From: Patescibacteria group bacterium
GTDB lineage: Bacteria; Patescibacteriota; Microgenomatia; Levybacterales; UBA12049
DNA: 64,000 nucleotides
Assembly: GCA_035946335.1 (NCBI GenBank)
Contig: DASYZL010000019.1
Span: 12,414-76,413, forward strand
Reading direction: 5' to 3'
The translations under genes and the position numbers were made by a program. Shown here in pieces: positions 31,771-57,722 of the stretch. Below the pieces are notes generated by a model that worked only from the letters and a program-made list of their open reading frames with translations, did no database searches and was not told where the DNA came from. The stretch's first letter is position 1. Each line of letters opens with the position of its first letter.

Positions 31771-31785
31771 TATAATTTGTATAAT
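31771..31785 (+). promoter_or_regulatory. Tandem -10-like hexamers (TATAATttgTATAAT) upstream of the giant gene.
   Basis: Read from the sequence. They lie in a 700-nt AT-rich leader region and overlap the TTG start (31777) used by the ORF track. Confidence 0.35.
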
Positions 31786-31836
31786 CTCGAGGCTAAAGAA
31801 CAAATTTCACGGATTTCACAACTACTAATCAGACGA

Positions 31837-37800: not shown

Positions 37801-39792
37801 GCTGCAACGCAATCAGGAGTTACTGTGCAAAAAACACAGGGTGCATATGACAGTAAGGTTTTAGGCATTATCACGACGAATCCGAATACGGTGTACGGAA
37901 AAGAAACGGCAGATTCAATTGTACTAGCCCTTGCCGGACGGGTTCCCACCATTGTTACGTCACTTTCCGGGAATATCGGACTGGGTGACGCGATTGTTTC
38001 CTCTCCTATTCCGGGTGTTGGTATGATTCCACAGCAAGCTTCAGAATCAGTCGGAAAAGCACTGGAATCATTTACTCCTACTGCTTCCACTTGCCAGACG
38101 GTATCTTCCTATGATGCCATTTCCTGGCCGGATGATAATGGCACAAACCAAAACCATCCGTGCTATGGCATTCCTGTTTCAGGATTTGACCAGCAAACGC
38201 AACAGACACTGATAAAACAATACGCTCTACTTCCTACAGACATTGTCTATGTGGGGAAAATTATGGCACTTACTAATCTTTCATATACCAGTCCTGTTAT
38301 CGCCTTAACAAATGCGGGAGACCTTACCATTGAACCAATTGCTTTAAGTGGTAACGGTATTGAAACGCAATATGGGGTTAAGACTACCCAAGGAAATCTT
38401 CTTACAGAGATCGGTTCTTTTGCAACAGCAGTCATTGGCAATATTCGTGCAGGTGGCATTTCAGCATCTGCTATTGCAACTAATTCCCTTTCCGTTGCTA
38501 CAGATAACGTTTCCATTAGCGGACAACCTCTTCGTGACTATATCATTGGGGTCGTGACTCAGGCAAACTTACTTGCGCAAAATAGTATTACTTCTCCTCT
38601 GGTAAGCGTTAGCACGATCCATACGAATATTATTTCACCGTTAACGAATACATCTCATATTGCTCTTGACCTTTCAAACTCTAGGTTAGAAATCAAAAAA
38701 GACGCAAGCGGTTCTGCTGTGGCTAGTATTGATACTAATGGCAATGCATCATTTTCAGGAACACTTAACTCGGAAAATATTGCAGTCAATAACGATGCAA
38801 CTGTTTCCGGAACACTCCATGTCCATAAAATCGTGGCTGATGAAATACTTGGGCAATCGGAAAATGTGAGTACAATTGCTGCGCAAAATATTACGAATGT
38901 TACGAATATTTATTTCGCAACACCCTCTGGGACACCTGCTGCTGAAAATATCGCTACAGGACTTGGCAATACAAGCACTCAATCAGGTGATTTGCTAGCA
39001 TCAGGCTTTTCACAGGCTTCACAATTCATGAATATTGCATCTTTTTCAGGTGAATTTGCCTATATCCCCAATCTCCACGCAACAACAGGATTGTTTGAAG
39101 AAGGACTTGCAGCGTTGGGACCGACAAGCCTGACGGATACCTCTATCAATGGACAGCTTACTATCGGCAAGCAACTCCTGCTTGCTGATACCAGCATTAA
39201 CGTCTTGGGTGGAGATCTGGAAATTCAACCACTGAAACAAGGTGGCGTATCGTTTGCAGATGGAACTATTTATATTGATAATAATGGCAATATCAAATTC
39301 AACGGCACAGCTACATTTAATGGTAAACTCGCAGTAAACATCATTTCCCCTTTAGGGAATGATAAAAATCTTAATCTGCAACTAGGAAAAAATGCAAGCG
39401 GCTCCGCCATTGCAATATCTGATTTGTCTGTAAACAATGCTTCAGGTTCAGGAATCTTTACTATTGACCAGCTAGGTAATCTGGTTGCTTCAGGAGCGGC
39501 AACTATTGCAAAGCTGAATTTTAATCTTGTACAACCGGCGCAGGCGTTATCTGATACAGAAGTTGTCGCGACCGGCTCAGCAGGAACAGCAGCAATTGCA
39601 CCCTATCAAACAGAAGTAACCATTGATAATCCTAATGTCACAGAAAATTCACTGATTTATATCAGTCCTGTTGGCAATATTTCCGGACAAACTCCCTATC
39701 TACGAAGGCAGGTTGCCGGTAGTTCATTTACCGTTGGTATCCCGCAAGACACACAATCACAAACATACTTTAACTGGTTAATCGTCAACTGA
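31837..39792 (+). CDS. Giant surface repeat protein of ~2650 aa. From N to C: two tandem phage-integrase-type SAM-like core-binding domains (cytoplasmic), a TM signal-anchor, SISG..[20 protein letters not shown] modules, the GD.VS...IPGVG domain and a C-terminal YFNWLIVN tail.
   Basis: 8-kb ORF. ATG at 31837 preferred ([11 protein letters not shown]...); the ORF track uses TTG 31777. The SAM-like repeats are [15 protein letters not shown]...[29 protein letters not shown] and [15 protein letters not shown]...[52 protein letters not shown]. Modules are shared with the 2998..8166 protein. Confidence 0.8.
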   Translation: [2651 protein letters not shown]

Positions 39793-39861
39793 ATGAGGCT
39801 ATTATTATTCCTTGACATTATACTTTTTACACTTGTATAGTAAGATAATCTCTATCAGCAC

Positions 39862-41958
39862 ATGTTTATGGAAACGGAAACATTTATAATAAAAAATAGA
39901 AAAAGAATCACTCTCATGCTTTCTCAAGCAACTATTTTTGTGTGGGGCATATTTTTTCTTTTCTTCCCGCTTCTGTTTCTGACGAATTTTACGGATGTAT
40001 TTGTCATACCCAAGCAAATCCTGCTTTGTCTTGCCGCGCTGTTGAGTATGGTTTTATGGGCAGCGCGTCTTTTTGTTAGCGGTAAAGTATCTATTCGAAG
40101 AACTTTCTTTGATGTTCCGCTGCTTTTGTTCGCAGCTGCACTGCTTCTTTCAGCAATTTTCTCAATTGACCGGTTCGATTCATTAACAGCAGTAGCACCT
40201 GTGCTATTTGGAGTGATCGGATTCTTCAGTATCACCAATGTTGTGCGAAAAGAGAATGCGGCACTCTTTCTACTCGCGTCATTTGTATTAAGTGCAATTA
40301 TTTGTTCACTTTTAATAATCTTCTCCTTTGTTAAGGTATATCCGCTCCCACTTGCCGCAACACATTTTAGGCAGTTTACCCCTTTTGGTTCCCTCCTTGA
40401 ACAGTTTGTGTATCTTCTTGTTGTCTTACTTATCACGCTATATTTTGCACTCCCGGTAATAAAAGGTAAAACAGATGCAAAAACGATTAGCGCAGTTATC
40501 GCAACACTAATCCTTTTTGCGGGAATAATAATAACAGGCATTAATATGGTACAAAATCCTCCGGTATTATTACCCTTTGAAACTGGTTTTCAAACAGCAT
40601 TTGCCGCGATTTCCCAAGACAGTGGACGAATAGCGCAAGGATTTTTCTTCGGAAGCGGGTACGGAACCTATGATACCGATTTTACAAGGTTTAAACAGCC
40701 AGCTTTCAATGCAAACCAAACGCTATGGACTGTTCCGTTTTCAAATTCTTCAAGCTATATCCTTGAGCTTTTAGCAACAGGAGGCTTTCTGGGTATTATG
40801 ACTTTTCTCTTTTTGCTTTTCCGTATTGTGGTTAATCCGAGTAAGAAATTTGCCAATCCAATCTTTTTGTCATTACTTACGCTTGCTTTAGCAACCTTTC
40901 TTTTACCATTCTCTTTCATAGAAGTAACGTTGTTACTTATGGTTTTGGGTTTGTTCGCAAACTTCGATGGATTACGACACACAAATAAGTACTTTGATGT
41001 CGAGTTACATGTTGTTGCATTGAAAAAAGGCCTATTATCTTTTGAGCAGGAAAGGGACGCATACGAAAATACAAACATTGTAGCCTATGGCATTGGTATC
41101 GTCTTTCTTGTACTCGTTGGGCTGCTGGGATATCTTGCTGGAACATATGTGATCGCTAATGCATATTTTCAACGGTCTCTGATAGAAGCAGCAATGAACA
41201 ATGGCAGTGCAACCTATCAGGATGAAGCTACTGCCATCAATATATTTCCATATCAAAGTATATATTACCGTATTTTTTCACAAACAAATATAGCACTGGC
41301 AAATGCGTTGAGCTCCTCGTTTACAAAAAACGGGAGTAAGCCAACACAACAGCAACAAAATACACTGTATCAATTTATTCAACAAGCAATTACCACAGGA
41401 AAACAAGCAACAATACTTTCTCCTCTTTCTGCTGCTGATTGGCAAAATCTTTCATCAGTCTACCGGTCATTAATCGGGGTTGGACAGAATGCGGACAGTT
41501 TTGCTGTACTTGCTTCACAACAGGCAGCGATACTTGATCCGTCGAATCCACAGGAATATATTGCACTTGGAGGTATTTACTACCAACTTGGACAATATGA
41601 TAGTGCAATCAGGCAATTTCAAACAGCTACCAATCTTAATCCAAGCTACCCAAATGCGTACTACAATTTGGGTCATGCGTACGAGCAAAAAGGAGATTTC
41701 CAAAATGCACTGAGCCAATACCAGATTGTCAAATCTTTAGTAACCTCACAAACTGATAAAAACCAAATCACTGCGGATATAAATACTATTCAGTCAAAAA
41801 TAAAAAATAATACGCAGCAACAAGCGCCAACAGCACAGCAAAACCAGTCATTAACAACACCCGTTGCAAATCCAACAAGCACGATTCTAAAACCCACGAA
41901 AAAACTTGATTTAACTGCTTCAACATCAGCTCCAATCAGTATATCCCCAACTCCTTAA
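39862..41958 (+). CDS. O-antigen ligase/polymerase-like polytopic membrane protein with C-terminal TPR repeats.
   Basis: 698 aa with about 12 TM helices, then TPR-like repeats (..YIALGGIYYQLGQYDSAIRQFQTATNLNPSYPNAYYNLGHAYEQKGDFQNALSQYQ..) and a Q/T/P-rich tail. Alternative start at 39916. Confidence 0.6.
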   Translation: MFMETETFIIKNRKRITLMLSQATIFVWGIFFLFFPLLFLTNFTDVFVIPKQILLCLAALLSMVLWAARLFVSGKVSIRRTFFDVPLLLFAAALLLSAIFSIDRFDSLTAVAPVLFGVIGFFSITNVVRKENAALFLLASFVLSAIICSLLIIFSFVKVYPLPLAATHFRQFTPFGSLLEQFVYLLVVLLITLYFALPVIKGKTDAKTISAVIATLILFAGIIITGINMVQNPPVLLPFETGFQTAFAAISQDSGRIAQGFFFGSGYGTYDTDFTRFKQPAFNANQTLWTVPFSNSSSYILELLATGGFLGIMTFLFLLFRIVVNPSKKFANPIFLSLLTLALATFLLPFSFIEVTLLLMVLGLFANFDGLRHTNKYFDVELHVVALKKGLLSFEQERDAYENTNIVAYGIGIVFLVLVGLLGYLAGTYVIANAYFQRSLIEAAMNNGSATYQDEATAINIFPYQSIYYRIFSQTNIALANALSSSFTKNGSKPTQQQQNTLYQFIQQAITTGKQATILSPLSAADWQNLSSVYRSLIGVGQNADSFAVLASQQAAILDPSNPQEYIALGGIYYQLGQYDSAIRQFQTATNLNPSYPNAYYNLGHAYEQKGDFQNALSQYQIVKSLVTSQTDKNQITADINTIQSKIKNNTQQQAPTAQQNQSLTTPVANPTSTILKPTKKLDLTASTSAPISISPTP

Positions 41959-42171
41959 AAGGATATAGTGGTAACCTGTGCAACTTTCCGTAATAGTCTC
42001 AGTAGATTTTCTTTATAATAATTCATGAACTGTAGTCTACTTTAGTACTCCATTGCAAATATGGATGAGTCTCATCAAGCATGCCGAACACTTTCCGTGC
42101 GAAACTGCGCCTTTCCCCCATATAGCATCAACAAGGTATTTGTGTGTAACTACGCATAAGACACAAAATAC

Positions 42172-44006
42172 CTATCCGCCTTTTTGAACGGATACTTCCC
42201 TCAAAAACTCGTTATAATCTCCCCCATCAACCTGTCCATCGTCATCAAGGATATCAGCTCCAGGTGAGAGCGTTGATGGACGGAACTGTGCTGGACAGAG
42301 TGAGGTATTGACTTGCGTACCGTAGCAGGAAACGAGAATATTATAATCGGTAAGATCAAGTTGGCCGACGTTCACTATATCACCATTCACCAGAGAGACA
42401 GACGGAAGGGTAATAGTCTGTCCTTGAGAAGCAGTAATAACCCCAGGTATCTGTTTGGAAAGAAATCCATCCATTTTCACCGTCACCGTGTACTGTCCTG
42501 AAGGAAGATTATTGGCTCCAACTGTTCCCTGGAAATTGCCACTTGTGGGAACATACTGAACGGTGCCTGTGACCGTAGCCACAGGTGCGCTTGTTGTTGT
42601 GAGGGTAACAGTGACAGCTCTTGCTGTGTGTAATGGTGCAGTATTCTTTCCAGAAGAAGATGATACATTGTCGCCACAGTTGCCTAACCCATGTGGACAA
42701 ATGGTTATATGGAATGTTGTTTGTCCTTGGGAAACTGTCGGTACTGGGGTAAGAGAAAAAGTTGGTGTTGGCTGTAGTGATGGCATACCTGCTGAACTTA
42801 TACGAAACAATCCGACACCGTGCGCTGCAATAGACGAGCTAATAGAATCCGTTGTGGTTGAAGTGGTATTTGTCCAAAGATTATGCATCGAATATGAACC
42901 AGCTTGTGTTATGCCAATTGCAGAAAGTGTTGTAGTAATTGTTGCGGTAGTTGTTCCTCCATTAAAAAGCAGTACTGCGTAGTCTCCATTTGCAAGCGGT
43001 CGCGCTAATACTTCTCCTGTTCCCTGAATATTTATTCGTTGTGCGGCTTTTCCTAATGGATCCTGATCAATTGCAATAACATCTTTATTGGTAAGTATTG
43101 CTTTTGTCGTTGCCGACATCGTACGTAAATCATTCCCTGCCAGCAGCGGGGCCGCAAGCATTGCCCATAAACTAAAATGGGTTTGATCTTCTATAACACT
43201 CATGCCGCCGTTTCCCACTTCCAGCATGTCAGGATCATTCCAATGCCCTGGTCCTGCGTGTGATGAGAGGGGTATCTCATCATGATAGAGAGTGGTTATA
43301 CTGGTAAAATTATCCTTAATATCCTGAAAAAACGCGCCATATTTGCGTATTGATACAGTGCGTCTATTTGTTTAAAGCCCGTATTTGCAACATGCATACT
43401 GATGACCATTGGACGGTTGTATTTTATAGAAAGATCAGAGAATAATTTTGCAGAGTTTATGATATCTTGTTCGGTTTTCCACGCACTGCAATTATCAATT
43501 TTCACAAAATCAACACCCCATGACGCGAACGTTTTCATGTCAATATCTTCATGCCCTAAACTTCCTAATAATCCACGACACGTTGTTAGTCCTTCTGTCG
43601 TATAGATGCCAAATTTTAATCCTTTTGCATGAACATAATTAATAAGATCAACAACACCATTTATACCGTTTACAGAAGGAAATCGTGTTTGATCAACACT
43701 AATTGTTCCATCTGGATTTCTTACCGTTCCTGCCCAGCTATCATCAACACTGAAATATATATATCCCGCGTCTTTTAAACCGCTATTCACCATAGCATCT
43801 GCTTCCTGTTTCAATATCTGTGAATTAACAGCATCATGAAAATGATTAAATTGATCCCATCCCATGGGAGGCGTTTGCGCAAGCTCGTTTGCCCCTATTG
43901 CCTGCTGTATGATTACCTGTTTTTGTTGGGTAAAGATGATGAGCAGAGGAAACGTGATTCCTAAAAACAAGAGACCAATAACTGATAAGAGCGATTTTGC
44001 TCGCAT
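42172..44006 (-). pseudogene. GH27 alpha-galactosidase with a C-terminal beta-sandwich and dockerin-like module, disrupted by a frameshift in a T6 homopolymer.
   Basis: The N-terminal ORF 43296..44006 has ..PPMGWDQFNHF.., KFGIYTTEGLTTC and DFVKIDNC. The C-terminal ORF 42172..43227 starts MLEVGNGGMS...SLWAMLAAPLLAGNDL, and its upstream in-frame sequence reads ..HAGPGHWNDPDMLEVGN. The frames switch at 43327-43332 (AAAAAA on the plus strand). The C-terminus has a dockerin-like DILDDDGQVDGGDYNEFL. Confidence 0.75.
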
Positions 44007-44111
44007 AGAAAGACGATATCTTTACTATAGCATAGCCATGTCAAAACTTGCTGTATTTGCCTGAGTTGAACTCTTGAGCCCTTTTTCACTTTTTCAAAGG
44101 ACACAAAGTCA

Positions 44112-45800
44112 TTACGGTTGTTGTGTTGCCTGGAAGAAAGTGTAGTTGATAGTTACACCTGATTGTTCACCGGTACGTATACCTGCGTGTCCCGATCCTG
44201 ATAGGGATGTATCTGTTACTGGTGTTGTTGTCCAGCCGGATGGTTCTATCATGCCAACCTGCCAGACTTTTGCATAGAGCGTAGAACCGATTATCCTGAA
44301 GCGGATAGTATAGAATGTATTTTTTATTGTGGTGAAAGCAGCAGAAGTCAAAACCTTCGTTGTCCCGGCAACTATTTTCTTTATCACCAATTGACTTCCG
44401 TTAAGGAAGGTATAATAGTAATTATTTGTATTCGTCTCCCGCAATACCAGTCCGACAGTATTGCCTGATGAGAACGCTGAGCTTTTAACTGTTGCAAGAA
44501 CTTCTGCATCTGTCACCGATGGTCCAAGCACACCAATATACGTTTTATTACTTGCGTTATACTCCTGTCCAGTATCATTTTTAATACTGAATACGTTGCT
44601 TGAACTCACGCTCCCACCCCATGTCAGCCCATCTGATGCCTTTCCCCAGTATGTTTGATTTGGTCTTTGAAAGGTATCTTGCGCAACGATTGTATTCACT
44701 GGTGTAGGTGTTGGGGTAGGAGTATTGGTTGGAGCAGAGGTTGGTGTGGGCGTCGAGTTAATAGCAGTAGTTAAATCACTCCAATGTTGCGTTGGATTAT
44801 CAGATTTTAAAACATCAAAATTGCTATACCAGAGGACAAGCCGCGGGGAAGCATTTTGCAACGTGAGGTTTAACATTGTCTCCAAATCAGAAAGAACTGG
44901 ATACGGACAGGTTGTAACACCAGGACACCGCCAGGCTTCATTCGGATATTCTGACCAGCTAAAGGACTGTAGCGTCATCGCAGATTGTTTACCATATTTG
45001 TTCGCAACAGCCTGCACAGCGGCAGCAATTGAGGCAGTCTGTGGGACTGACTCTCCTGCTCCCCATGAACCAACAGGATAATAGTCAACGCCAATGACAT
45101 CTGCGGTATCCTGAAAAGTTGTAAGTATAGACGTTGCGCCGGTTGCTCCTCCTCCTGTATTTTCTGTTGTCTCAATATTTAATCGGGGATGGCTGGGATC
45201 CAATTGGTGAACTAAATCGGTAAATGTTTTCAGAGCATCATGATTCGCTGGTTGAACTTCTTCAACATAATACCCCCACAGAGCAGGATTATTTTTTACA
45301 AGATTAACTACATAGGTAATAAAATCTGTGTTATTTTGGCAGGCTGTATTATCAGGACGAACACATGTTGCTGCAAGACCTTTATAGTAAGTTAGTAAAT
45401 TCGTTCCATTCCAAAGAGCAGAATCACTCATGCTAAAAATGACTTTCATGCCTAAAGAATTTGCGTAGTTGAGGTAATCTTCCATTCCTGCCGCATCTCC
45501 CCATAACTGGTCGTAATTAACAACCAATCTAACTCCTCCTTGCGATATTTTCAGTAATCTTGGTTTGCATCCGTTAGGATCAGCTGTTCCCCACGATGTA
45601 CATGATTCATATATTCCTTGCCCATATGAAGGCACACTCCCCGCTGCATGCTGTTGCAGTATAACCTTTTTTTGCAACTGAAACATTGTAAGAGGAAGTG
45701 CTACGATGATAAGAAAAAGGGAAAGAATACTAATTGTTTTTCCGGACTTTACGGAAAAAAAAGCATTAGCACGTTTCAGGTTTGATGTTTTCTTCTTCAT
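44112..45800 (-). CDS. Secreted TIM-barrel glycoside hydrolase (clan GH-A-like, family uncertain) with a Pro/Thr linker and a C-terminal jelly-roll/lectin-like domain.
   Basis: 562 aa with a signal-anchor. The catalytic-domain-like region is ..MKVIFSMSDSALWNG.., ..YYVEEVQPANHD.., ..VIGVDYYPVGSWG... It has a PTPTSAPTNTPTPTPTP linker and a beta-rich C-terminal ~190 aa. Confidence 0.5.
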   Translation of the reverse strand: MKKKTSNLKRANAFFSVKSGKTISILSLFLIIVALPLTMFQLQKKVILQQHAAGSVPSYGQGIYESCTSWGTADPNGCKPRLLKISQGGVRLVVNYDQLWGDAAGMEDYLNYANSLGMKVIFSMSDSALWNGTNLLTYYKGLAATCVRPDNTACQNNTDFITYVVNLVKNNPALWGYYVEEVQPANHDALKTFTDLVHQLDPSHPRLNIETTENTGGGATGATSILTTFQDTADVIGVDYYPVGSWGAGESVPQTASIAAAVQAVANKYGKQSAMTLQSFSWSEYPNEAWRCPGVTTCPYPVLSDLETMLNLTLQNASPRLVLWYSNFDVLKSDNPTQHWSDLTTAINSTPTPTSAPTNTPTPTPTPVNTIVAQDTFQRPNQTYWGKASDGLTWGGSVSSSNVFSIKNDTGQEYNASNKTYIGVLGPSVTDAEVLATVKSSAFSSGNTVGLVLRETNTNNYYYTFLNGSQLVIKKIVAGTTKVLTSAAFTTIKNTFYTIRFRIIGSTLYAKVWQVGMIEPSGWTTTPVTDTSLSGSGHAGIRTGEQSGVTINYTFFQATQQP

Positions 45801-45982
45801 TAATAGTATATTAGAGTAACTAACTATAAGTTAAACAGAACAGATAGAAATTGTCAATAATTTTCTATAAGCCTACTTAAACCCGAATCATTTCATGTAA
45901 TGAAGCAGCCCGTAAACAATTCTTTTCCGCAAAAAAAGATGTCCGTAATTTCCAAACCCATTCGTGACACCTTTTCTTGTTA

Positions 45983-46297
45983 TTATGCTGCTTTTTGTTT
46001 TCTGAAACAATCGCGGCACAACACAGGCCTGTCGCCTTTTGGCTGAAATGGTACTGTATCTTTTTTTCCGCACTCGGCGCAGGTAATTTCATATAATTGA
46101 CGTTGTCCGCCGGTATGATAACCACCGCCATTGTCACCCATTCTGTTTTTCTTTGCAGAACGACATTCAGGGCATCGTTTTGGCGCGTTCGTAAAACCTT
46201 TTTTGGCGTAAAATTCTTGCTCTGAAGCTGTCCAAACAAATTGTTTACCGCAATCAACGCAGGTTAAATTTTGATCTTGATATTGCATGGAGTTCAC
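45983..46297 (-). CDS. Small duplicated zinc-ribbon protein.
   Basis: 104 aa with two copies of C-x2-C...FYAKKGF...C-x2-C / C-x2-C...C-x2-C (CVDCGKQF...RCPECR; CAECGKKD...LCRDCF). Confidence 0.6.
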   Translation of the reverse strand: MNSMQYQDQNLTCVDCGKQFVWTASEQEFYAKKGFTNAPKRCPECRSAKKNRMGDNGGGYHTGGQRQLYEITCAECGKKDTVPFQPKGDRPVLCRDCFRKQKAA

Positions 46298-46404
46298 CTC
46301 CTCTCATTCTTCCAAAATGTTTCCTTTGCTCTTTATGAGAGAAAGTGAATTTGGAGTCCATAGCGATTATACCGAATCGTAAGGTAAAACACAAGGAATA
46401 GTTG

Positions 46405-46477
46405 TGGACCGTATCGGATTTGAACCGACAACCTTACGAATGCCATTCGCACGCTCTACCAATTGAGCTAACGGCCC
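46405..46477 (-). tRNA. tRNA-Ala, anticodon GGC.
   Basis: The minus-strand cloverleaf is GGGCCGT-TA-GCTC-AATTGGT-AGAGC-G-TGCGA-ATGGCAT-TCGTA-AGGTT-GTCGG-TTCAAAT-CCGAT-ACGGTCC-A. The G3·U70 alanine identity pair is present. Confidence 0.75.
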
Positions 46478-46500
46478 AAGTTATTAACTTTCCCCTTTTG

Positions 46501-46573
46501 TGGACTTGAGGAGATTCGAACTCCCGATCTCCGCAATGCGAATGCGGCGCTCTACCAACTGAGCTACAAGCCC
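46501..46573 (-). tRNA. tRNA-Ala, anticodon CGC.
   Basis: GGGCTTG-TA-GCTC-AGTTGGT-AGAGC-G-CCGCA-TTCGCAT-TGCGG-AGATC-GGGAG-TTCGAAT-CTCCT-CAAGTCC-A. G3·U70 is present. Confidence 0.8.
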
Positions 46574-46594
46574 GTGTGATCCATTATATAAAAA

Positions 46595-47560
46595 TTACGG
46601 CAGATACGAAAGCGGATTGAGGTATCCGTCGGGAGAACGGATTTCAAAGTGGGTGTGTGGTCCTGTTGAATTTCCTGTATCGCCACGATAACCAATCAGT
46701 TGTCCAGCGGTAATGGAATCTCCTGTTGCAACTGGCGGTTGACCAACCATATGTGCATACATGGTCGACCATCCCCCACCATTACTCAATAACACGTGGC
46801 ATCCATACCCATAATTCCAGCCACAATCAGCCTCCATAACAACACCTGCTTTTGCCGCATAAATAGGTGTTCCTATAGGACCAGCAATATCAATCGCTTT
46901 GTGATACCAAGAATACCCTTGGGTAATCAACCCTTGAATAGGCCAATTGAATCCTGTACCAGTAAAGGTAATCTGTGTTGGCGCTGATGCGATGAATGTT
47001 GGCGCTGTATATGTTGATTGTGCTGTTGGCGGAATACCGTCGGGAACAACCAGGTCCTGTCCGCTAACCAGAGAAAACGTTTCGGGATTAGCAAAATCAT
47101 TGAATGGAAAATCAACAATTTTCTGCGCATTTGTCTTGAGTTTATCTGCGATAGAGTAAACAGTATCGCCCGATTCCACTTTGTATAACACACCGGATAC
47201 TGGCAAAATTTGTAGTTGATCTCCTACTGAAACCTCATCACTTGTTAAATTATTTGCCCATTTGATGGTATCAACCGAAATATCAAACTTTTGCGCTATT
47301 GCAGTTAAGGTATCTCCATGTTCAACCGTATAGGTAATCACTTTACCTCTGTGACCGCTTGAAACGGTATTAAAAACATTTTCATCAACCGTGACAGACT
47401 GCGTACCACTTGCGGGAGACGGAATGCGCTGAATGGCATTAACGCTTGTTGAGAAAATGGGAAGCGTATCAGTCAGAACTGGCGCAATCATAACGCCAAG
47501 TCCTAACAAGCCAATAGTTGCAATGTGAAGAAATGTTCTGTTGTATTTTCCCCGCTTCAT
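46595..47560 (-). CDS. Secreted LysM-domain (two copies) M23-family metallopeptidase (peptidoglycan hydrolase).
   Basis: Two LysM repeats (YTVEHGDTLTAIAQKF..., YKVESGDTVYSIADKL...). The M23 motifs are HKAIDIAGP...GYGCHVLLSNGGGWSTMYAHM...GNSTGPHTHFEI. Start preferred at the Met at 47560 (MKRGKYNRTFLHIATIGLLGLGV signal-anchor) rather than 47728. Confidence 0.85.
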   Translation of the reverse strand: MKRGKYNRTFLHIATIGLLGLGVMIAPVLTDTLPIFSTSVNAIQRIPSPASGTQSVTVDENVFNTVSSGHRGKVITYTVEHGDTLTAIAQKFDISVDTIKWANNLTSDEVSVGDQLQILPVSGVLYKVESGDTVYSIADKLKTNAQKIVDFPFNDFANPETFSLVSGQDLVVPDGIPPTAQSTYTAPTFIASAPTQITFTGTGFNWPIQGLITQGYSWYHKAIDIAGPIGTPIYAAKAGVVMEADCGWNYGYGCHVLLSNGGGWSTMYAHMVGQPPVATGDSITAGQLIGYRGDTGNSTGPHTHFEIRSPDGYLNPLSYLP

Positions 47561-47793
47561 TAAAAGAAAGCGGACAAGTAAGTTTTTTTCTTTTTCAAAG
47601 AAAAGAAAAAAACCGTTGAGGTATTTTTTGGAGTAGAGAAAAAGAAATTCCGAGAAAGACGCAACTTCAAAAGCAAAATTCGTCAGATAAGAACGCGACA
47701 AAGGCAGCAAGCGTTTGATTATGTGCATGGGAGAATTTTATATTAGCAAAACACGCAGGATATGTCAAATTAACTTTCAGGAAGAATCTCTCT

Positions 47794-49008
47794 TTATTTT
47801 CCTAAACTTTCTAGAAAAGCGTTATTGTCATCTGTTTTCATCAGTCGTTCAATGAGGGTTTGCGTACGCTCCTCGGGTCCAAGCATTTCCAGCATGCGTC
47901 GCATGGTAATAACTTTCTTTAAAATTCCTTCCGAAAGGATAAGTTCTTCCTGGCGGGTTCCGGACTTACTGACATTGATTGCGGGAAAAATTCGTTTCTC
48001 CGCAAGCGAACGCTCCAAATGTAACTCCATGTTACCTGTACCCTTAAATTCTTCATAAATCAAGTCGTCCATCCTGCTTCCTGTTTCAACTAAAGCAGTA
48101 CCTATAATGGTAAGACTTCCCCCTTCCTGACAGCTTCTTGCTGCACCAAAAAACCGCTTTGCCGGAAAAAGAGCTGCAGGATCAAATCCACCGGAAAGTG
48201 TTCGACCACTTGGTGCAACCGCTAAATTATATGCGCGGGCGAGGCGCGTTATAGAATCAAGCAGGATGATAACATCTTTCCCCATCTCAACCAAACGTTT
48301 TGCCCGTTCAAGGGTAATTTCTGCTACGCGAATCTGGTTTTCGGGTGATTCATCAAAATTACTTGCAACAACTTCGCCTTTAACAGACATTGAAATATCG
48401 GTAACTTCCTCAGGACGCTCTGCAATAAGCGCTGCCATGAGGTGTACCTCTGGAAAATTCTTTGAGATCCCTGCAGCAATATCTTTAATAATTGTTGTTT
48501 TTCCGGCCTTTGGCGGAGAAACGATCATGCCACGCTGACCAAATCCAATCGGCGCAATCAGATCAATCATCCTGGTTGATAATGGTATCTTCCCTGTCGC
48601 AAGGATAATTTGTTTCTTTGGATACATTGCAGTTAGGTCGTCGAACCAAACACGTCGTTGTACCTGATCTGCCGGTGCATTATTGACTGTTTCAACCTTA
48701 AGTAGACCATAGTATCGTTCATTATCTTTTGGCGGACGCGCCACACCACTAACCAAATCTCCTGCGCGAAGCATGAATCTGCGAATTTGTGATTGAGAAA
48801 TGTAGATGTCTCGATTTGAAGGAACGAATTTCGGACGCAAAAAACCGTGTCCTTCAGGTTGCAAATCTAAAATCCCTTGTACTGTTTCTGTCGGACCCTG
48901 TAAGGCTGCAGGATTTGAAATACTATTGTTGTCTCCTTGAAACGGATGCGAGATCGGTTGACCAACAATATGTTCTGCTGAAGTTCTGTCAGATGATTTT
49001 ATAGGCAT
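47794..49008 (-). CDS. rho: Transcription termination factor Rho.
   Basis: 404 aa with an RNA-binding OB region and the ATPase core ..GFGQRGMIVSPPKAGKTTIIKDIA.., plus the Q- and R-loop context. Confidence 0.9.
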   Translation of the reverse strand: MPIKSSDRTSAEHIVGQPISHPFQGDNNSISNPAALQGPTETVQGILDLQPEGHGFLRPKFVPSNRDIYISQSQIRRFMLRAGDLVSGVARPPKDNERYYGLLKVETVNNAPADQVQRRVWFDDLTAMYPKKQIILATGKIPLSTRMIDLIAPIGFGQRGMIVSPPKAGKTTIIKDIAAGISKNFPEVHLMAALIAERPEEVTDISMSVKGEVVASNFDESPENQIRVAEITLERAKRLVEMGKDVIILLDSITRLARAYNLAVAPSGRTLSGGFDPAALFPAKRFFGAARSCQEGGSLTIIGTALVETGSRMDDLIYEEFKGTGNMELHLERSLAEKRIFPAINVSKSGTRQEELILSEGILKKVITMRRMLEMLGPEERTQTLIERLMKTDDNNAFLESLGK

Positions 49009-49262
49009 AAATTGGTTAATCAGTCATGTTTGGGAACTAAACAAAATTCGAAGAAAGAAAAAGATTACCGTTTGTATTATACACTATTGTCAATGTCACT
49101 TGTCAAGAGATGAAAATTGTGCGTAAAAAAGAAAGCAAATAAGCTGAAATACTATTTGGCTCGCTTATTTGACAGATCCCATAATCTTTGCTAAACTTTC
49201 TTCACAGTAAGCATACCTGCGCAACAGCATCGATAACCATATTACTTCTGCTCCATAGTCAT

Positions 49263-50024
49263 ATGAATACCCAAAACATAACACAACCATTTATTTCCAT
49301 TGTTCTTCCCGTTTTCAATGACGCATATTATCTCCCATCTTGCCTTGATAGTATACTCGCACAAAGCTACGATAATTTTGAAGTAATTGCTATTGATGAC
49401 TTTTCCCGCGATGACTCATGGAAGGTACTTCGGATCTACCGTTCATCTGATGAGCGTATCAAAATATATCGAAATGTAAAGCATTATGGCAAAGTACTGA
49501 CTATAAACAGAATTTTGAGAAAAGCAAAAGGACAGTATCTTGTCTTTATGGACCCAAAAGACAGGATGTATAAAGAGAAAGTCAAAAAACAACTACACTA
49601 CCTGCAACGCCATGAAAAAATTGTTGGGGTAGGCACGCAATGTAGCCTTGTAAATGAGCAAACAAAGCGCGTTGGTACAACTGGCTATCCCCACCATATA
49701 CTTTCTAGCTTTGAGGCACTCCGCATGGAACCTGGAACAATAATGATAAATAAACTGCTTCTTCCAAAAGACCTTTTATATTTCAGTGGCGATGAAGATT
49801 TTATGTATACCACTATGGTAATGAAATTATTTTCGTTCGGTATCCTAGCCAATCTTTTACAACCATTGCAATACCATTACATCGAAACAAGCGCAGTCAT
49901 GTCGCCGATTTCGCGTGTTGCATCTACAATTCGCCTGACTATGTTGTCTTTTTTTGAGCATAACCACCTCCCCTCTCCACGATATGTGTATTCACTTTTC
50001 TCCAGAGCAACAATGTTGTCCTAA
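49263..50024 (+). CDS. Family-2 glycosyltransferase.
   Basis: The N-terminal ISIVLPVFNDAYYLPSCLDSILAQSYDNFEVIAIDDFSRDDS is a classic GT2 (GT-A, DxD) signature. The ATG at 49263 is preferred over the ORF-track start at 49188. Confidence 0.75.
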   Translation: MNTQNITQPFISIVLPVFNDAYYLPSCLDSILAQSYDNFEVIAIDDFSRDDSWKVLRIYRSSDERIKIYRNVKHYGKVLTINRILRKAKGQYLVFMDPKDRMYKEKVKKQLHYLQRHEKIVGVGTQCSLVNEQTKRVGTTGYPHHILSSFEALRMEPGTIMINKLLLPKDLLYFSGDEDFMYTTMVMKLFSFGILANLLQPLQYHYIETSAVMSPISRVASTIRLTMLSFFEHNHLPSPRYVYSLFSRATMLS

Positions 50025-50160
50025 AACAACGTATCTTTTCCATAAGTTATCCACATTTTTTTTCTATATAATATTTTGCCTTTACAATAACCTAATCGTT
50101 ATATTGTTTGCTATAGGATATATGATATTTTCCGATATCATTGCTATGGGTTGACAACAA

Positions 50161-50349
50161 ATGTCCCACTATGCTACACTTTTTGTCGTTATGTTAGACC
50201 GACTTACCAGCCGAATCATGAAACGCTTTCAGAAAAAGCAACGAAAAACCCTTGAAACATATAAACGGGAAACATTAGTTGCGGTTGGCAGAACACAATT
50301 TCAAACGTTACTGAAGAAAAAATTACAGCTTCCTATTGGAATATGGTAA
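50161..50349 (+). CDS. Hypothetical small basic protein.
   Basis: 62 aa, K/R-rich. The ORF is immediately followed by an imperfect long hairpin (50363..50417). Confidence 0.2.
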   Translation: MSHYATLFVVMLDRLTSRIMKRFQKKQRKTLETYKRETLVAVGRTQFQTLLKKKLQLPIGIW

Positions 50350-51017
50350 ATTGATAAAAAAGAGCATCGCTTTCGTTACTTGGTGAATAAATTCGTACGA
50401 TAAGCAATGCTCTTGCAATTTGCAATTAGTCCTTTAGGCAGGAATAAACTAAGTGCAGAATTAATTAATACATAAAATTGCAATATATGTCAAGAAAAAT
50501 TGCTGAAGCTAAAAATGGTTATTTTTCTTGACAGGATAATATAAATGGAAAAGAGAAAATTGAGTCCATTTATTATTCGGAATTGTTTTTTTATTCTGAT
50601 AGGGTAAGAAAGTTGGGCAGGCTTTCTTACCCGCTTAGAGTAAATAAGCACTTACTGCTTTCCCAAAATAACAAGTATATCAGCAGCGTCTTTTGGCTCT
50701 ATTTCTCTCTTAGGTAAGCTCCCTACTGTTCTACCCAGCATGCACACAATCTCTGATGCGCTTGTAGATTGCTTCTCTGGTAGATCAATGGTCATGCTGT
50801 GTTTGTAGTCACTTTGACTGGCATTACTCTTATCAACTCTCACTCCAGTAATTTTTTCCACAAAATAAAACTGCTCGCTATGCTATAAGCAAGAATAAAA
50901 CTTCTCTTTTCCACTCTTGGAGAAAGTCGAATGAGAAGATATGAAGAAGAGCGAAGCCTAAAAAAGCAAAATATGCTTATAACACTATCCTATCTCCAAG
51001 AATGGCTGAGCTATCTT

Positions 51018-51386
51018 TTAGACAACATCGGTGACATACAGCAGAGCAACAGTACTTGTTGTTTCTCTCAGTTCCTGAAATAGTAACTGGTAAAGTTCTT
51101 GTAAGAACGTCATGGTAGTTTCACCCCCTTTCTTCTCAATCATCGAAATTATGGATATCAACGGGCTTATGGGTTTTTTGCTATGTACGGATGGCAGTAC
51201 AATCCATGAGAAGGAAATCAACTCCTGAGAATCTCTGTTACCTAGGAAGAAAAAACAATTTCTTCCGCCACGGGCAATGAGATAAAAGTTAGCGTATGGA
51301 GAATCAGCATGGATTAAACGAATAAGTAGGTCAACGATTTTTTGCCACAATGTTATTGGAGTATTTTGTTGGGCAGATATTTTCAT
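51018..51386 (-). CDS. Hypothetical protein (small ORF in an AT-rich accessory patch).
   Basis: 122-aa ORF only, with no motif recognised. Confidence 0.25.
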   Translation of the reverse strand: MKISAQQNTPITLWQKIVDLLIRLIHADSPYANFYLIARGGRNCFFFLGNRDSQELISFSWIVLPSVHSKKPISPLISIISMIEKKGGETTMTFLQELYQLLFQELRETTSTVALLYVTDVV

Positions 51387-51528
51387 AATCTTGGATAATA
51401 GTTTCTTATTTTAGTATGGCCTTGTGAAAAACATATGGTCAACTATTGACAAAAGTTGTATACAATTGCATACTATTGCTAATAATTGTATATTCTAAGA
51501 CGCATGGTTATGTGAAATTTTTATCGTT

Positions 51529-51804
51529 ATGGAAAACTTTCTCTCTGTCAGACAAATCGCGTATATATTAAAAGTGCATCCGTTAACAATTAGACGGTAT
51601 ATCCGTGAAGGCAAACTAAAAGCGGTCAGGATCGGTGGCACTGTACGAATCAAAGAAACAGAGCTGCAAAATTTCCATAAAGAACTTTCAGTCGCTACCC
51701 CGCAACAAAGTATTATCATAAAAGCAAAGCAGCACGCAGCGAGACCTTTTAGTGATGCTGATCCAATATTCCGGTTGCAAGGAAGGGGTGCTAGCTTAAA
51801 ATAA
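51529..51804 (+). CDS. Excisionase/MerR-like helix-turn-helix DNA-binding protein (putative antitoxin).
   Basis: 91 aa. LSVRQIAYILKVHPLTIRRYIREGKLKAVRIGGTVRIKETEL matches the HTH_17 excisionase-family DNA-binding domain. It lies 18 nt upstream of a PIN-like ORF. Confidence 0.6.
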   Translation: MENFLSVRQIAYILKVHPLTIRRYIREGKLKAVRIGGTVRIKETELQNFHKELSVATPQQSIIIKAKQHAARPFSDADPIFRLQGRGASLK

Positions 51805-51822
51805 GAATAATGAGAGAAGTAT

Positions 51823-52242
51823 ATGCAAAGTAAAAAAGTTTTTCTCTCTCCTGATGTTTTTGTGGCATATATTGATCGGGCTGACCCGAAACATTTACAT
51901 GCTACAGCATTATTCCGCTATTTTGCACAAGAACGGTATGTCCTCTACGTCAATCCAAATACCATAAGTACAGTATATCAAAAAGTATCACATACTATTA
52001 GCGCCTTTGTTGCCAAAGATTTTCTCAAAGCTATGTCCTTAAGCACGATCAACTTGCTTCACAGCGAAGAAAGTGACGTAAAGCTGGTATATAAAACGAT
52101 TATCAATTACCAATCAACAGAATTATCGTTTGACGAAACGCTTTTGTCTGTTATGGCAAGCCGAAGAAGTATCCCGTTTATTTGCACATTTTCATATTTG
52201 CATCCATTATTTGGACTATCTATTTTTTATTTACCAATATAA
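51823..52242 (+). CDS. PIN-domain-like protein (putative VapC-type toxin).
   Basis: 139 aa. The N-terminal ..VFLSPDVFVAYIDRADPKH.. carries the first PIN acidic residue and later D/E positions are present. It pairs with the upstream HTH gene. The last conserved Asp is not evident. Confidence 0.45.
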   Translation: MQSKKVFLSPDVFVAYIDRADPKHLHATALFRYFAQERYVLYVNPNTISTVYQKVSHTISAFVAKDFLKAMSLSTINLLHSEESDVKLVYKTIINYQSTELSFDETLLSVMASRRSIPFICTFSYLHPLFGLSIFYLPI

Positions 52243-52594
52243 GTCAACGTATAGTAAAGTGTGATTCCCGAAATGATATAAAAGATATCGTAAAGGGTGA
52301 ATATATAATTGAATATCATTCAATAGGTACATCAGTAAAAAAGTGAGTCATATTTATTTTTGCTAAAAATCTCTTTTTCAAACCAGGTAATGCAAATGCA
52401 TTAAGTAACATTCATTATTTTTTTTCAATTACTATATGGATATTCTTGGTAATACCTATACTTGAAGTTTTCTTCGCTTTCTCTTTATACTATTGAAGAT
52501 TTCATCTTACATACTAATCCAACACAAATTTTTACTCTCATTAGAAATGAATTCTATGAGTGCTATTGCTTACACAGAGCACACGAGCAGTATC

Positions 52595-53377
52595 TTAAAC
52601 TTTTTTTGCGAACAGTATCCGTCCACTTGAAGTAGCGATAACCCTAGTAATAACAACATTGATCGATTTTCCAACTTCAGCGGCAGCATATTCTACCACA
52701 ATCATTGTACCATCGGCTAAATATCCAACGCCTTGGGTCGGATCTTTTCCGACATGTTGCAAGGCGATATGAAGTGTCTCACCCGGTACCGCAATTACTT
52801 TCAACCGATTCGCAAGTTCATGGACATTAATGGCAACAACACCGCTAATGCTTGCTTTTTTTTCCAGATTGTAGTCGCAGGTGATAATTCGTCCTTTGAA
52901 TTTTTTAGCAAGTTGGATGAGCTGGTCATCTACTAGCATATCTTTCGTGTGATTCATTACTGTTTTTGAAAGGAACAAAAATTTTATATATTTTACTTTC
53001 TTTACTTTCTCAAGACTTGCTAACCCTCTTTGTCCCCTTTCCCGTTTGACCATATCCTGGGAATCGGCAATATGCTTTAGTTCTGATAAAATGCTCTCAG
53101 GAATTACCAACGATCCCCATAACACACCAAGTTCTATGACATCAAAGATTCTCCCGTCAATAATTGCCGATGTATCAAGAAAATAACCATTGTCAATTTT
53201 CTGCTCTTTTTTCTTCGCTGTTTTCCTTGGATGCGGAATCATTCCGGGCAATCGTTGAACAAGCGTTTTTGCAATTTCATCAGCCAAAACACCGATGAGC
53301 CGTTGTTGAGAAGGTTGTTCAGCTGTTGAAACTTTTTGTTGTTCGTTTTTCTTTATTTGTTCTTCTTTTTTAGCCAT
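52595..53377 (-). CDS. PIN/TRAM-domain protein (YacL-like).
   Basis: 260 aa. The PIN-like N-terminus is ..GYFLDTSAIIDGRIFDVIELG... The C-terminal TRAM-like segment is GETLHIALQHVGKDPTQGVGYLADGTMIVVEYAA. It is adjacent to radA as in many bacteria. Confidence 0.7.
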   Translation of the reverse strand: MAKKEEQIKKNEQQKVSTAEQPSQQRLIGVLADEIAKTLVQRLPGMIPHPRKTAKKKEQKIDNGYFLDTSAIIDGRIFDVIELGVLWGSLVIPESILSELKHIADSQDMVKRERGQRGLASLEKVKKVKYIKFLFLSKTVMNHTKDMLVDDQLIQLAKKFKGRIITCDYNLEKKASISGVVAINVHELANRLKVIAVPGETLHIALQHVGKDPTQGVGYLADGTMIVVEYAAAEVGKSINVVITRVIATSSGRILFAKKV

Positions 53378-53380
53378 ATC

Positions 53381-54763
53381 TTATTCGCTCTCTTTTGGCA
53401 ATTCAAAGTGTCGCTCGTCTTTCTGTTTCCATTCCTTCTCTCTTATTCCTCCAAAAGACTGCAATACATCTTTGAGCGTTGTAAAGTCTTGTGCACTGAT
53501 AATAGTTTGCAATCCTAATTTTTTTGCTTCTCTCACTCGTTTATCTAGCATGGAAACATTACGCAATTCTCCCAGTAAACCCACTTCAGCGATACCTACT
53601 GTTTTTGGCATTGCAATATTTTTCAAACTTGCATAAATTGCCAGACAGATACCAGCATCAGCTGCAGGATCAGTCACTTTGATTCCTCCGGCAACATTCA
53701 CAAACACATCGTACGTCTCTAAAGGCAAACGGCAATGTTTTTGTAACACTGCAAGTAACAATTCCACCCGCCGATTATCTACTCCGGAGGACACGCGCTT
53801 TGGGAATGGTAGTTTAGAATACACGACTAAGGCTTGAATTTCAATAAGAAAGGGGCGTGATCCTTCCACTATGACAACCATAATGGATCCTGGCGCGCTG
53901 ACACGGGCTTCAGAGAGAAAAATTTGTTCAGGATTTTTTACTTCTACCATTCCCACCGAATCCATGAGAAATACACCGACTTCATCAACCGGACCAAATC
54001 TGTTTTTCAAGCTTCGAAGGATCCGGGTTTTGGTAAATTTTTCCCCTTCCAGAAACAATACTGTATCAACCATATGCGATAACACCATTGGTCCTGCAAC
54101 CATTCCCTCTTTCGTTACATGCCCGACAAGCAAAATCGGGATGCTTAACGTTTTTGCTATACGTACAAACGTACTCGTAGCATATCGCACTTGCGAGACC
54201 GAACCTGATAATCCACCGGTATTTTCAGATGAAACCATTTGCACAGAGTCAATAATGACCAAATCAGGTTTTTCTTTTTCAATTCCCTTTGCAATACTGT
54301 CTGTATCGGTCAGAGAAAGAAGCAAAAGGGTTTCCAATGGTTTATTCAGTAATCCTATACGAAATGCTCTCAAGCTCACTTGCTCAAATGATTCTTCTGC
54401 AGAAACATACAAGACTTTTTTGCCTTCCAGCGCAAGATTGATGCAGAGTTGCAAAAGAAGAGTTGATTTGCCAATACCCGGATCTCCTGCAATTAACGTG
54501 ATCGACCCGGCCACAATACCCCCACCCAGCACTGTATCCATCTCAACAAATCCGGTATCCAATCGTTTCGCTGTCTTGTTTGTCACCGGTTGTAATGGTT
54601 GCGCTATCACTGTTTGTCCAACAACTCCACTGCTTACTTTTACGTCATTAACACGGATTTCTTTAAAGCTATTCCATACTCCGCATTCAGGACATTTTCC
54701 TAGATATGCAGGGCTATCATAACCACATTCTTGGCAAACAAATGCCGTACGTTGTTTTGGCAT
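53381..54763 (-). CDS. radA: DNA repair protein RadA/Sms.
   Basis: It has an N-terminal zinc ribbon (CQECGYDSPAYLGKCPECGVWNSF), a RecA-like Walker A (LIAGDPGIGKSTLLLQ), KNRFG and a Lon-protease-like C-terminal domain. The Met at 54763 is preferred over 54826. Confidence 0.9.
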   Translation of the reverse strand: MPKQRTAFVCQECGYDSPAYLGKCPECGVWNSFKEIRVNDVKVSSGVVGQTVIAQPLQPVTNKTAKRLDTGFVEMDTVLGGGIVAGSITLIAGDPGIGKSTLLLQLCINLALEGKKVLYVSAEESFEQVSLRAFRIGLLNKPLETLLLLSLTDTDSIAKGIEKEKPDLVIIDSVQMVSSENTGGLSGSVSQVRYATSTFVRIAKTLSIPILLVGHVTKEGMVAGPMVLSHMVDTVLFLEGEKFTKTRILRSLKNRFGPVDEVGVFLMDSVGMVEVKNPEQIFLSEARVSAPGSIMVVIVEGSRPFLIEIQALVVYSKLPFPKRVSSGVDNRRVELLLAVLQKHCRLPLETYDVFVNVAGGIKVTDPAADAGICLAIYASLKNIAMPKTVGIAEVGLLGELRNVSMLDKRVREAKKLGLQTIISAQDFTTLKDVLQSFGGIREKEWKQKDERHFELPKESE

Positions 54764-54884
54764 ATATGCATTTTTGAATCTCTTGTTTGACAGGTATTGA
54801 GTAGCAATAAGACTGTCCAGAATCACATCCTACACTTATTTTACTACTCGTAGCCGCACAGAACCAGTAAGCAGTTTATAACAA

Positions 54885-55976
54885 CTACCGGTACATGAGC
54901 GGTTTCTCCAGGAGTACCGGAGTTAATAATATTCTTCGTTTTCTACTATCTGCTTGCACAACCGTTGCCGTGATGCTTTGACCAACAGCATAGGTAGTTG
55001 TCGGTGGAATCTTTTCCTTACGGATCATTCCCTCTGCCGGCATGCTGCCAACAGAAGATAATGTCAGCAATATGCCCGCATCTTCTATCTTGGTTACAGT
55101 TCCGCTCACTTTCTTGTCAACCGGATATGCCCGCACTATTTCTTCAAACGGATCAGCTTTCAATCTCTTGAGAGAGAGGTCAATCCGCTTTGCTTTTTCG
55201 TCAGCACCAAGAACAACTGCTTCAACAGGCTGTCCTATTTGAAAGTGCGAACTAATATCATCGATTTTCTCCCATGAAATTTCGGAAATGTACACAAAAC
55301 CCTCAAGAGTCTTGTCATGCTTTGTTAGGGTAATAAAAAGACCAAATGACGTCATACCTGAAACAATACCATGCACTGTTTCACCCTTTTTGAGTAATGC
55401 GCTTATACTTTTAAATGCTTCTGTATTCAAGACGTCTTTTGCTGAAAAGATAACTTTTTTATGTTCGCGATTGAGATCAACAATGCTTGCTTTGATAGTC
55501 TTCCCTACCAGATTATCCATATCCTCGGTAAACGGAACGTGTGACTGAGGCAAAAACCCGCTAATGCCACTTTCTGCTTCGACAAGAAATCCACCTTTCG
55601 TACTGTCAGTAACAGTAATATTAATTTTCTCAGCAGTTACCAACAATTCTTCCAGAAGTTTCCATGTTGCGTTATCGGCAAACCGACGCAAAGAAACAAT
55701 CGGATATCCCATGTCGCCTTCCGGGGTTAACACTGATGCCTCAACAGTGTCGCCTACATGAAGAAGTCCTAGCAGGTGCCTGAGAATTTTCCTATCCTTT
55801 TCCAGAACAACCGCCTCTGTCTTAGCTCCAACATCCAGAAGAATCTCTGATGACGTAATCTTTGAAACCTTTGCCTTGATAACCTCACCTTTTTTCAGCA
55901 CGACAAATGATGCAGAGTGTTTTTGTAAAAGCTCTGCCATTGACTGAGCGGGTTTATTTCCAGATGCGGTACTCAC
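54885..55976 (-). CDS. rpsA: 30S ribosomal protein S1 (short, ~4 S1 domains).
   Basis: 363 aa with repeated S1/OB motifs (..GEVIKAKVSKITSSEILLDVG.., ..GKTIKASIVDLNREHKKVIF.., ..GETVHGIVSGMTSFGLFITL.., ..GQPVEAVVLGADEKAKRIDLSLK..). Confidence 0.8.
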   Translation of the reverse strand: MSTASGNKPAQSMAELLQKHSASFVVLKKGEVIKAKVSKITSSEILLDVGAKTEAVVLEKDRKILRHLLGLLHVGDTVEASVLTPEGDMGYPIVSLRRFADNATWKLLEELLVTAEKINITVTDSTKGGFLVEAESGISGFLPQSHVPFTEDMDNLVGKTIKASIVDLNREHKKVIFSAKDVLNTEAFKSISALLKKGETVHGIVSGMTSFGLFITLTKHDKTLEGFVYISEISWEKIDDISSHFQIGQPVEAVVLGADEKAKRIDLSLKRLKADPFEEIVRAYPVDKKVSGTVTKIEDAGILLTLSSVGSMPAEGMIRKEKIPPTTTYAVGQSITATVVQADSRKRRILLTPVLLEKPLMYR

Positions 55977-57679: not shown

Positions 57680-57687
57680 ACTGTCTT

Positions 57688-57722
<35 letters not shown>

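Follow-up and report, generated by a model that had tools for sequence, protein, structure and literature searches.

One-base changes in short A/T runs are common to pseudogenes that arise by homopolymer slippage and to the indel errors of draft or metagenome assemblies, and in both cases the two halves of the gene are fully homologous and are automatically annotated as two proteins. Poly(A)-tract transcriptional slippage rescues genes in endosymbionts. Low-level compensatory frameshifting on indels has also been documented, and a homopolymer indel of the 'savior' or problem type may still yield a little full-length product through slippage at the run (PMC5009743). In the known savior/problem-indel and poly(A)-slippage cases the runs are longer (7 G, or 9-10+ A), and the products were measured.

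Sulfolobus solfataricus fucA1 is a precedent for a glycosidase made by -1 frameshifting: this archaeal gene, which encodes a GH29 alpha-L-fucosidase, is split by a -1 frameshift, and restoration of the frame gives the full-length enzyme (PMC1616953). Frameshifting in fucA1 was shown experimentally, with an efficiency of ~5% in E. coli, a product seen in the native host and dependence on the regulatory site (PMC1616953). Some IS elements make use of the slippery heptamer U_UU.U_UU.C, one of those on which unstimulated frameshifting exceeds 0.1% in E. coli (PMC4066793).

Here we describe a GH27 alpha-galactosidase gene from the metagenome-assembled genome of an uncultured Patescibacteria bacterium, on the minus strand at 44006..42172 of a 64-kb window (the whole stretch of DNA that was analysed), that is split into two frames. 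In the nature of the change and in the state and annotation of its two halves, nothing distinctive separates the gene from homopolymer-slippage pseudogenes or draft-assembly indel errors. It resembles the savior and problem indels in that a little full-length product might still arise at the run, although the run is of 6 nt. It resembles fucA1 as a glycoside hydrolase gene split by a -1 frameshift, in which restoring the frame would give the full-length enzyme, but there is here neither stimulator nor conservation, and the comparison is between a GH27 gene in a bacterium and an archaeal fucosidase gene. With the GH27 enzymes of rice (1UAS) and human (GLA), the encoded protein has in common the full barrel and beta-sandwich and the K-x-D-x-C, R-x3-D-I and AGPGxWNDPDML motifs; it differs from them in that the open reading frame (ORF) is interrupted, and in the presence of a Patescibacteria-type C-terminal module with Ig-like and dockerin-like parts.

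Results

The first of the two frames, ORF1 (minus strand, 44006..43296), comprises 236 codons and a TAA stop, and its product ends in YANMARFFRILRIILPV. The second, ORF2 (minus strand, 43371..42172), lies -1 relative to ORF1, has 399 open codons followed by a stop, and contains RKYGAFFQDIKDNFTSITTLYHDEIPLSSHAGPGHWNDPDMLEVGNGG; the two are both open over 73 nt (43371..43299). The frame changes at a T6 homopolymer (minus strand, 43332..43327; A6 at 43327-43332 of the plus strand), around which the minus strand reads CAA TAC GCA AAT ATG GCG CGT TTT TTC AGG ATA TTA AGG, and which is the sole homopolymer of at least 6 bases within the GH27 gene. The near-invariant Arg225 (CGT, whose T opens the run) is decoded in the ORF1 frame, and the invariant acid/base Asp229 (GAT, 43323..43321) in the ORF2 frame, three codons past the run. 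Because these two residues bracket the run in different frames, the frame change can be placed in the TTTTT-C stretch that separates them. The initial annotation had given the end of ORF1, the peptide of the other frame and the position of the A6 run correctly, and its main claim, that a GH27 alpha-galactosidase is broken by a single-base frameshift in a T6 run, is borne out by the frames, by Pfam and by the Arg225/Asp229 bracket.

Addition of one nucleotide (T7) or removal of two (T4) rejoins the frames. A T5 run leads into a third frame full of stops, so that the earlier suggestion of an intact gene with either T5 or T7 holds for T7 and fails for T5. The T7 repair yields a protein of 611 aa, and the junction peptide obtained either by this repair or by a -1 slip is ANMARFFQDIKDNF, the counterpart of which in the ORF1 frame is ANMARFFRILR. 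T7 is the parsimonious ancestral state, since it keeps the universal R-x3-D spacing (RFFQD, compared with RTTGD, RNFAD and REFGD), and a T4 repair would remove one residue between two active-site residues.

Two other accounts of the interruption were tried and rejected. An alternative UGA code would not rescue ORF1, whose stop is TAA and beyond which many stops of all three kinds follow in the zero frame. Repeat-induced misassembly was discarded because 42100-44120 is not repeated, even in part, elsewhere in the window, where the C-terminal module is also present once. In a consensus scan, ORF2 ends in a terminator-like hairpin with a T-rich tail (minus strand, 42173..42194), whereas the same strand has no terminator-like site separating the two ORFs, as would be expected if both halves shared one transcript.

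The Pfam family Melibiase_2 (PF16499) matches ORF1 over profile positions 1-167 (E 1.2e-34) and ORF2 over positions 191-284 (E 2.9e-24), and in the T7-repaired protein the two become one match covering positions 1-284 of 284 (E 3.8e-64). That the matches are split and then rejoin as one upon insertion of a T excludes a chance juxtaposition of the halves. As observed earlier, the other frame restores the GH27 AGPG.WNDPDML block. The repaired protein continues with the Melibiase_C beta-sandwich (PF17801) at residues 329-403 (E 1.6e-19; E 2.1e-19 for ORF2 alone). Rice alpha-galactosidase (1UAS) aligns to residues 40-401 with an E value of 4.6e-82 and without a gap at the junction, and the alignment to human GLA (1R46) is likewise gap-free there, RFFQDIKDNF of the repaired protein standing against RTTGDIADNW in rice and RNFADIDDSW in human.

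Both catalytic residues can be assigned from these alignments. Asp171, in KIDNC (GAT, 43496..43494, in ORF1), aligns with rice KYDNC and human KFDGC in a column that is invariant among 24 sequences, and corresponds to human D170 and rice D130; Asp229, in R-x3-D-I, corresponds to human D231 and rice D185. In human GLA, D170 is the nucleophile and D231 the acid/base (PMC8234732). Over the alignment of 24 sequences the repaired protein retains all 76 invariant columns, of which 46 (D229 to G397) are encoded past the shift. The usual C-E-W-G loop of GH27 is replaced by MHVANTG or MHALDQF in the repaired protein and in its two nearest homologues, P0002 and P0003, and the W of W-R-T-T-G-D is replaced by A or S in the same three proteins. 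With these two elements replaced, the sugar specificity may differ from that usual in GH27.

The initial annotation had proposed a comparison with orthologues. Every one of the 23 aligned homologues is a single ORF, and at the site each has the spacing R-x3-D or G-x3-D. The nearest intact ones, P0002 (60% identity) and P0003 (56%), read MSREFGDIGD and MSREFRDIDD there, and the Patescibacteria homologues P0004 and P0039 (42-47% identity) are both single ORFs. Relative to its intact homologues, the ORF is disrupted. Three protein searches (with the full repaired protein, with the junction and C-terminus, and with the N-terminus and junction) returned nothing above 60% identity besides the source genome's own halves, which are the database entries P0001 and P0121 (~100% identical); recall was imperfect, the first of the searches having missed P0121, the entry of ORF1 itself. 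DNA scans that covered JGI metagenomes and a single genome for each GTDB species, with a pattern (GHWNDPDM) common to all GH27 genes, gave loci of 45-48% identity at best and no related locus with a variable T tract among the matches listed. The ORF1 and ORF2 products are singletons among ~15 billion proteins.

The repaired gene would encode a secreted or membrane-anchored GH27 retaining alpha-galactosidase, as judged from its domain layout. ORF1 begins with an N-terminal hydrophobic signal or anchor segment (minus strand, ~44006..43926) and contains about the first two thirds of the GH27 (beta/alpha)8 barrel, with the nucleophile Asp171 among its residues. The ORF2 frame encodes the acid/base Asp229, the AGPGHWNDPDMLEVGNGG block and the remaining parts of the barrel, together with the Melibiase_C beta-sandwich (minus strand, ~43023..42799) and, after a Pro/Thr linker, a C-terminal module of ~205 aa (minus strand, 42175..42789). 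This module consists of an Ig-like part, with a weak match to CarboxypepD_reg, and a dockerin-like tail that contains DILDDDGQVDGGDYNEF; it shares 59% identity with the C-terminal end of P0125, a GH5 'cellulase' from Patescibacteria.

In the public record the gene is listed as two proteins, and this listing is the one point in favour of a split enzyme, in which ORF1 and ORF2 would be translated separately and their products would assemble non-covalently into an active barrel. The entries match the two frames exactly: HEV2339981.1, 'glycoside hydrolase family 27 protein' (236 aa), for ORF1, and HEV2339980.1, 'hypothetical protein VGT05_04460' (392 aa), for ORF2, the latter with ATA at 43350 as its start. 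That ATA codon has no evident ribosome-binding site, and the first ATG, GTG or TTG in the ORF2 frame comes at 43227, 35 codons beyond the acid/base Asp. Moreover, the signal peptide is in ORF1, with none in ORF2, the frames overlap within a conserved active-site segment, and not one of the aligned homologues is split. We regard a split enzyme as scarcely credible.

Upstream, at 44112-45800, lies a gene for another secreted protein, and the GH27 gene is downstream of it. In other Patescibacteria the C-terminal domain of this neighbour occurs in direct fusion with GH27 (P0039, 47% identity). Its N-terminal domain gave no match in Pfam, NCBIfam or the PDB and does not resemble the GH5 protein P0125. 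The window also holds a 23S rRNA gene with group I introns and LAGLIDADG ORFs; such introns, with their LAGLIDADG ORFs, are a reported trait of CPR bacteria. Two overlapping ORF pairs, 14409/14729 and 25046/25728, were examined as further split genes and ruled out by Pfam, and the larger ORF-free gaps in the window contain no obvious gene fragments.

For an independent view of the locus we used the Logan assembly of SRA run SRR12347820, whose contigs were reached through the exact products of two neighbouring genes. Exact-product look-ups with ORF1, a 5'-extended ORF1, ORF2 in versions of 392, 351 and 343 aa, and variants of the neighbouring genes led to Logan contigs through those two neighbours only. 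One contig (L161) corresponds to 55800..43990 of the window, gap-free and differing only at the two neighbouring positions 49670-49671, and a second (L162) to 38500..42258 with 100% identity. Over the 15,570 nt of flank compared, which include 47 homopolymers of 6-8 nt (13 of them of 7-8 nt), there were 0 indels. The match extends 16 nt into ORF1 on one side and takes in the last 28 codons of ORF2 on the other, so that 42259-43989 is outside it.

These data bear on whether the missing base is a property of the genome or of its assembly. An artefact, in which the genome truly carries T7 and an intact gene, and the T was lost during read error correction, bubble popping or consensus calling in the metagenome assembly, is a serious possibility, though in our estimate a less probable one than a real deletion. 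The gene is otherwise perfect, with all 76 invariant columns and a downstream frame of 399 codons, and the lesion falls in its only homopolymer of at least 6 bases. In addition, when the same sequencing run was assembled independently, the contigs broke at either edge of just this GH27 gene. This double break, together with the dinucleotide variant at 49670-49671, suggests micro-heterogeneity or uneven coverage, conditions under which consensus errors arise, and is a hint of some heterogeneity or coverage problem at the GH27 locus. Against an artefact, two assemblers agree over 15.6 kb and 47 homopolymers without an indel, which indicates that the data set is not homopolymer-error-prone and disposes of the idea of an assembly riddled with homopolymer indels. 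The long, near-identical Logan contigs (k=31) also point to accurate short reads, which would rarely miscall a run of 6-7 nt, and no other broken gene was noticed in the 64 kb.

A real and very recent one-nucleotide deletion in the GH27 gene, presumably present in the cells themselves, is the explanation that we favour, at about an even chance. Neither half shows further decay: extra stops and lost conserved residues are absent from both, as the 399 open codons and the 76 of 76 invariant columns attest. Since nothing beyond the missing base has decayed, the lesion, if real, would be very young, although the same lack of decay is exactly what an artefact would show. Other points also weigh against a real deletion. 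The T run itself is outside the independent assembly match, where Logan breaks at 43990 and 42258, and both halves being singletons, there is no close orthologue for a test of relaxed selection or of whether the frameshift is conserved. Streamlined Patescibacteria genomes are, moreover, generally thought to be poor in pseudogenes.

The same observations were weighed for phase variation, one of three explanations offered in the initial annotation; the other two, recent pseudogenisation and an assembly or sequencing indel, are both viable. Here the T tract would be a contingency locus, with T7 cells of the population expressing the secreted glycosidase and T6 cells having it switched off. A homopolymer lesion in a gene for a surface or secreted protein, some population micro-diversity in the form of the dinucleotide variant, and the breaks of the independent assembly around the gene would be consistent with this. 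But there is nothing special about a tract of 6 nt: the window contains 176 homopolymers of at least 6 bases, 136 of them inside long ORFs and 46 of 7-8 nt, and this is one of the 176. A one-base polymorphism would produce a local bubble rather than contig breaks ~660 and 1070 nt away, and no related locus with a variable tract appeared among the matches listed. Typical contingency tracts are also far longer than 6-7 T. Slippage-prone phase variation is therefore unsupported, and we consider it very unlikely.

A further possibility is that the full-length enzyme is produced from the T6 gene as it stands, by -1 frameshifting on U_UUU_UUC or by transcriptional slippage that adds one U, either as a programmed event or with the indel tolerated as 'leaky'. 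A slippery heptamer, T_TTT_TTC, is present at 43332..43326 of the minus strand and has the form X_XXY_YYZ in the zero frame of ORF1; it went unnoticed in the initial annotation. The shift site of fucA1 is reportedly a slippery heptamer as well. The heptamer is perfect, and a -1 slip on it would give ..MARFFQDIKD.., identical to the T7 protein and with the conserved RFFQD. It is, however, not independent evidence, because it is the automatic product of losing a T from CGT TTT TTT CAG, and the long ORFs of the window contain 138 in-frame X_XXY_YYZ heptamers, 4 of them TTTTTTC, which counts against recoding.

The surroundings of the heptamer likewise offer little to a programmed event. No stimulatory RNA structure was found downstream in comparison with shuffled sequence (z -0.46 over 126 nt and z -1.23 over 66 nt), and the only downstream hairpin begins 44 nt past the heptamer, where a spacing of 5-9 nt is expected of a stimulator. 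An SD-like stimulator was sought upstream, and no GGAGG-like element occurs in AAATATGGCGCG. The frameshift is also not conserved, all 23 aligned homologues being single ORFs, and a run of 6 nt is short for efficient transcriptional slippage. Functional recoding in either form thus seems improbable. Programmed recoding is unsupported, and a trace of 'leaky' full-length product is plausible. That this CPR bacterium makes a functional, low-abundance secreted alpha-galactosidase from T6, by stimulator-independent -1 slippage or by insertion of one U, is less probable still.

Discussion

Our results are best explained by an ordinary single-base homopolymer frameshift, with no sign of a programmed mechanism. 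According to this explanation, a T7 tract would have lost one T, most likely by replication slippage, and CGT TTT TTT CAG would have become CGT TTT TTC AGG. Translation would then leave the conserved frame right after Arg225, continue through 11 out-of-frame codons and terminate at the TAA at 43298..43296. The resulting product of 236 aa would keep the nucleophile Asp171 but would have neither the acid/base Asp229 nor the NDPDM loop that binds the substrate. The final strands of the barrel and all that follows them would be missing too, and because of these losses it should be inactive. Unprogrammed -1 slippage on U_UUU_UUC might still give some full-length enzyme, in trace amounts at most.

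Publicly, a single broken alpha-galactosidase gene stands as two protein entries, so that proteins are overcounted and the complete domain architecture is obscured, and the consequence is mostly one of annotation hygiene. If the full-length enzyme were made from T6, the gene would be a second example of a glycosidase produced through -1 frameshifting, and a bacterial counterpart of the archaeal fucA1 fucosidase in which the level of the enzyme is set by recoding. Should the deletion be real, the loss of a secreted alpha-galactosidase from this lineage is under way or only just complete, and the locus would provide a small data point on the turnover of glycan scavenging in the reduced genomes of CPR bacteria.

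C-E-W-G loop and C-terminal module of the GH27 protein

In the alignment of 24 GH27 sequences (A1), the repaired protein groups with P0002 and P0003, the two homologues closest to it, in one subclade without the customary C-E-W-G loop (columns ~327–352), a region that corresponds to window positions 43380–43420 on the minus strand of the gene and whose counterpart in the human enzyme is the E203/W204 region. The Trp of the W-R-T-T-G-D motif is also absent from the subclade, with every catalytic residue retained. Judging from these sequences, the sugar specificity of the loop-less subclade may differ from that of classical alpha-galactosidases.

The protein ends in a module of 205 aa (42175–42789, minus strand), composed of an Ig-like part, with a weak match to CarboxypepD_reg, and a dockerin-like tail, DILDDDGQVDGGDYNEFLREVSVQKGG. 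This module shares 59% identity with the C-terminus of P0125, a GH5 'cellulase' from a different Patescibacteria MAG, and the module common to the two enzymes is predicted to be an anchoring or binding module. The independent Logan assembly of run SRR12347820 (contigs L161 and L162) has a contig break at each end of the GH27 gene: at 43990, which is 16 nt into ORF1, the N-terminal reading frame, and at 42258, exactly where the last 28 codons, encoding the conserved dockerin-like tail, begin. A single dinucleotide, at 49670–49671, distinguishes this assembly from the window. Taken together, the breaks and the dinucleotide difference hint that paralogous repeats exist in other parts of the genome or that this locus varies between strains.

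Genomic context

The 23S rRNA match (57480–61518, minus strand) spans 3.9 kb against a 2.9-kb model and includes three group I intron matches, at 59361–59566, 57792–58095 and 57480–57689. It is accompanied by a LAGLIDADG endonuclease ORF (58624–59154, E 3.4e-23), and a second lies past its 3′ end (56811–57251, E 6e-09). On the same strand, tRNA-Ala(TGC) is found upstream (61660–61733) and 5S rRNA downstream (56266–56381). Intron-rich rRNA arrangements of this sort have been reported in CPR bacteria.

Two giant ORFs are present, one of 1722 aa (2998–8166, minus strand) and one of 2671 aa (31777–39792, plus strand; HEV2339978.1), for which the public name 'site-specific integrase' looks doubtful given the length of the protein. 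Between a 293-aa ORF and a leuS-like gene (21777–24350) lies a 1.2-kb gap (20549–21776), where all ORFs are short (<65 aa) and searches for tRNA and Rfam matches found none; the stretch is apparently non-coding, which is atypical of a compact genome. A tandem tRNA-Ala pair (46404–46573, minus strand; anticodons GGC and CGC, 23-nt spacing) adjoins a treble-clef zinc-finger protein gene (45983–46297).

Upstream of the GH27 gene, HEV2339982.1 (44112–45800, minus strand) encodes a 'hypothetical' protein of 562 aa with a signal/anchor segment. Its N-terminal domain (~300 aa) had no match in Pfam, NCBIfam or PDB. The C-terminal domain (~200 aa) shares 47% identity with a domain that P0039 and P0004, GH27 alpha-galactosidases from other Patescibacteria, carry as a C-terminal fusion. 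It looks like an uncharacterised module, probably carbohydrate-binding, that is shuffled among CPR glycosidases.
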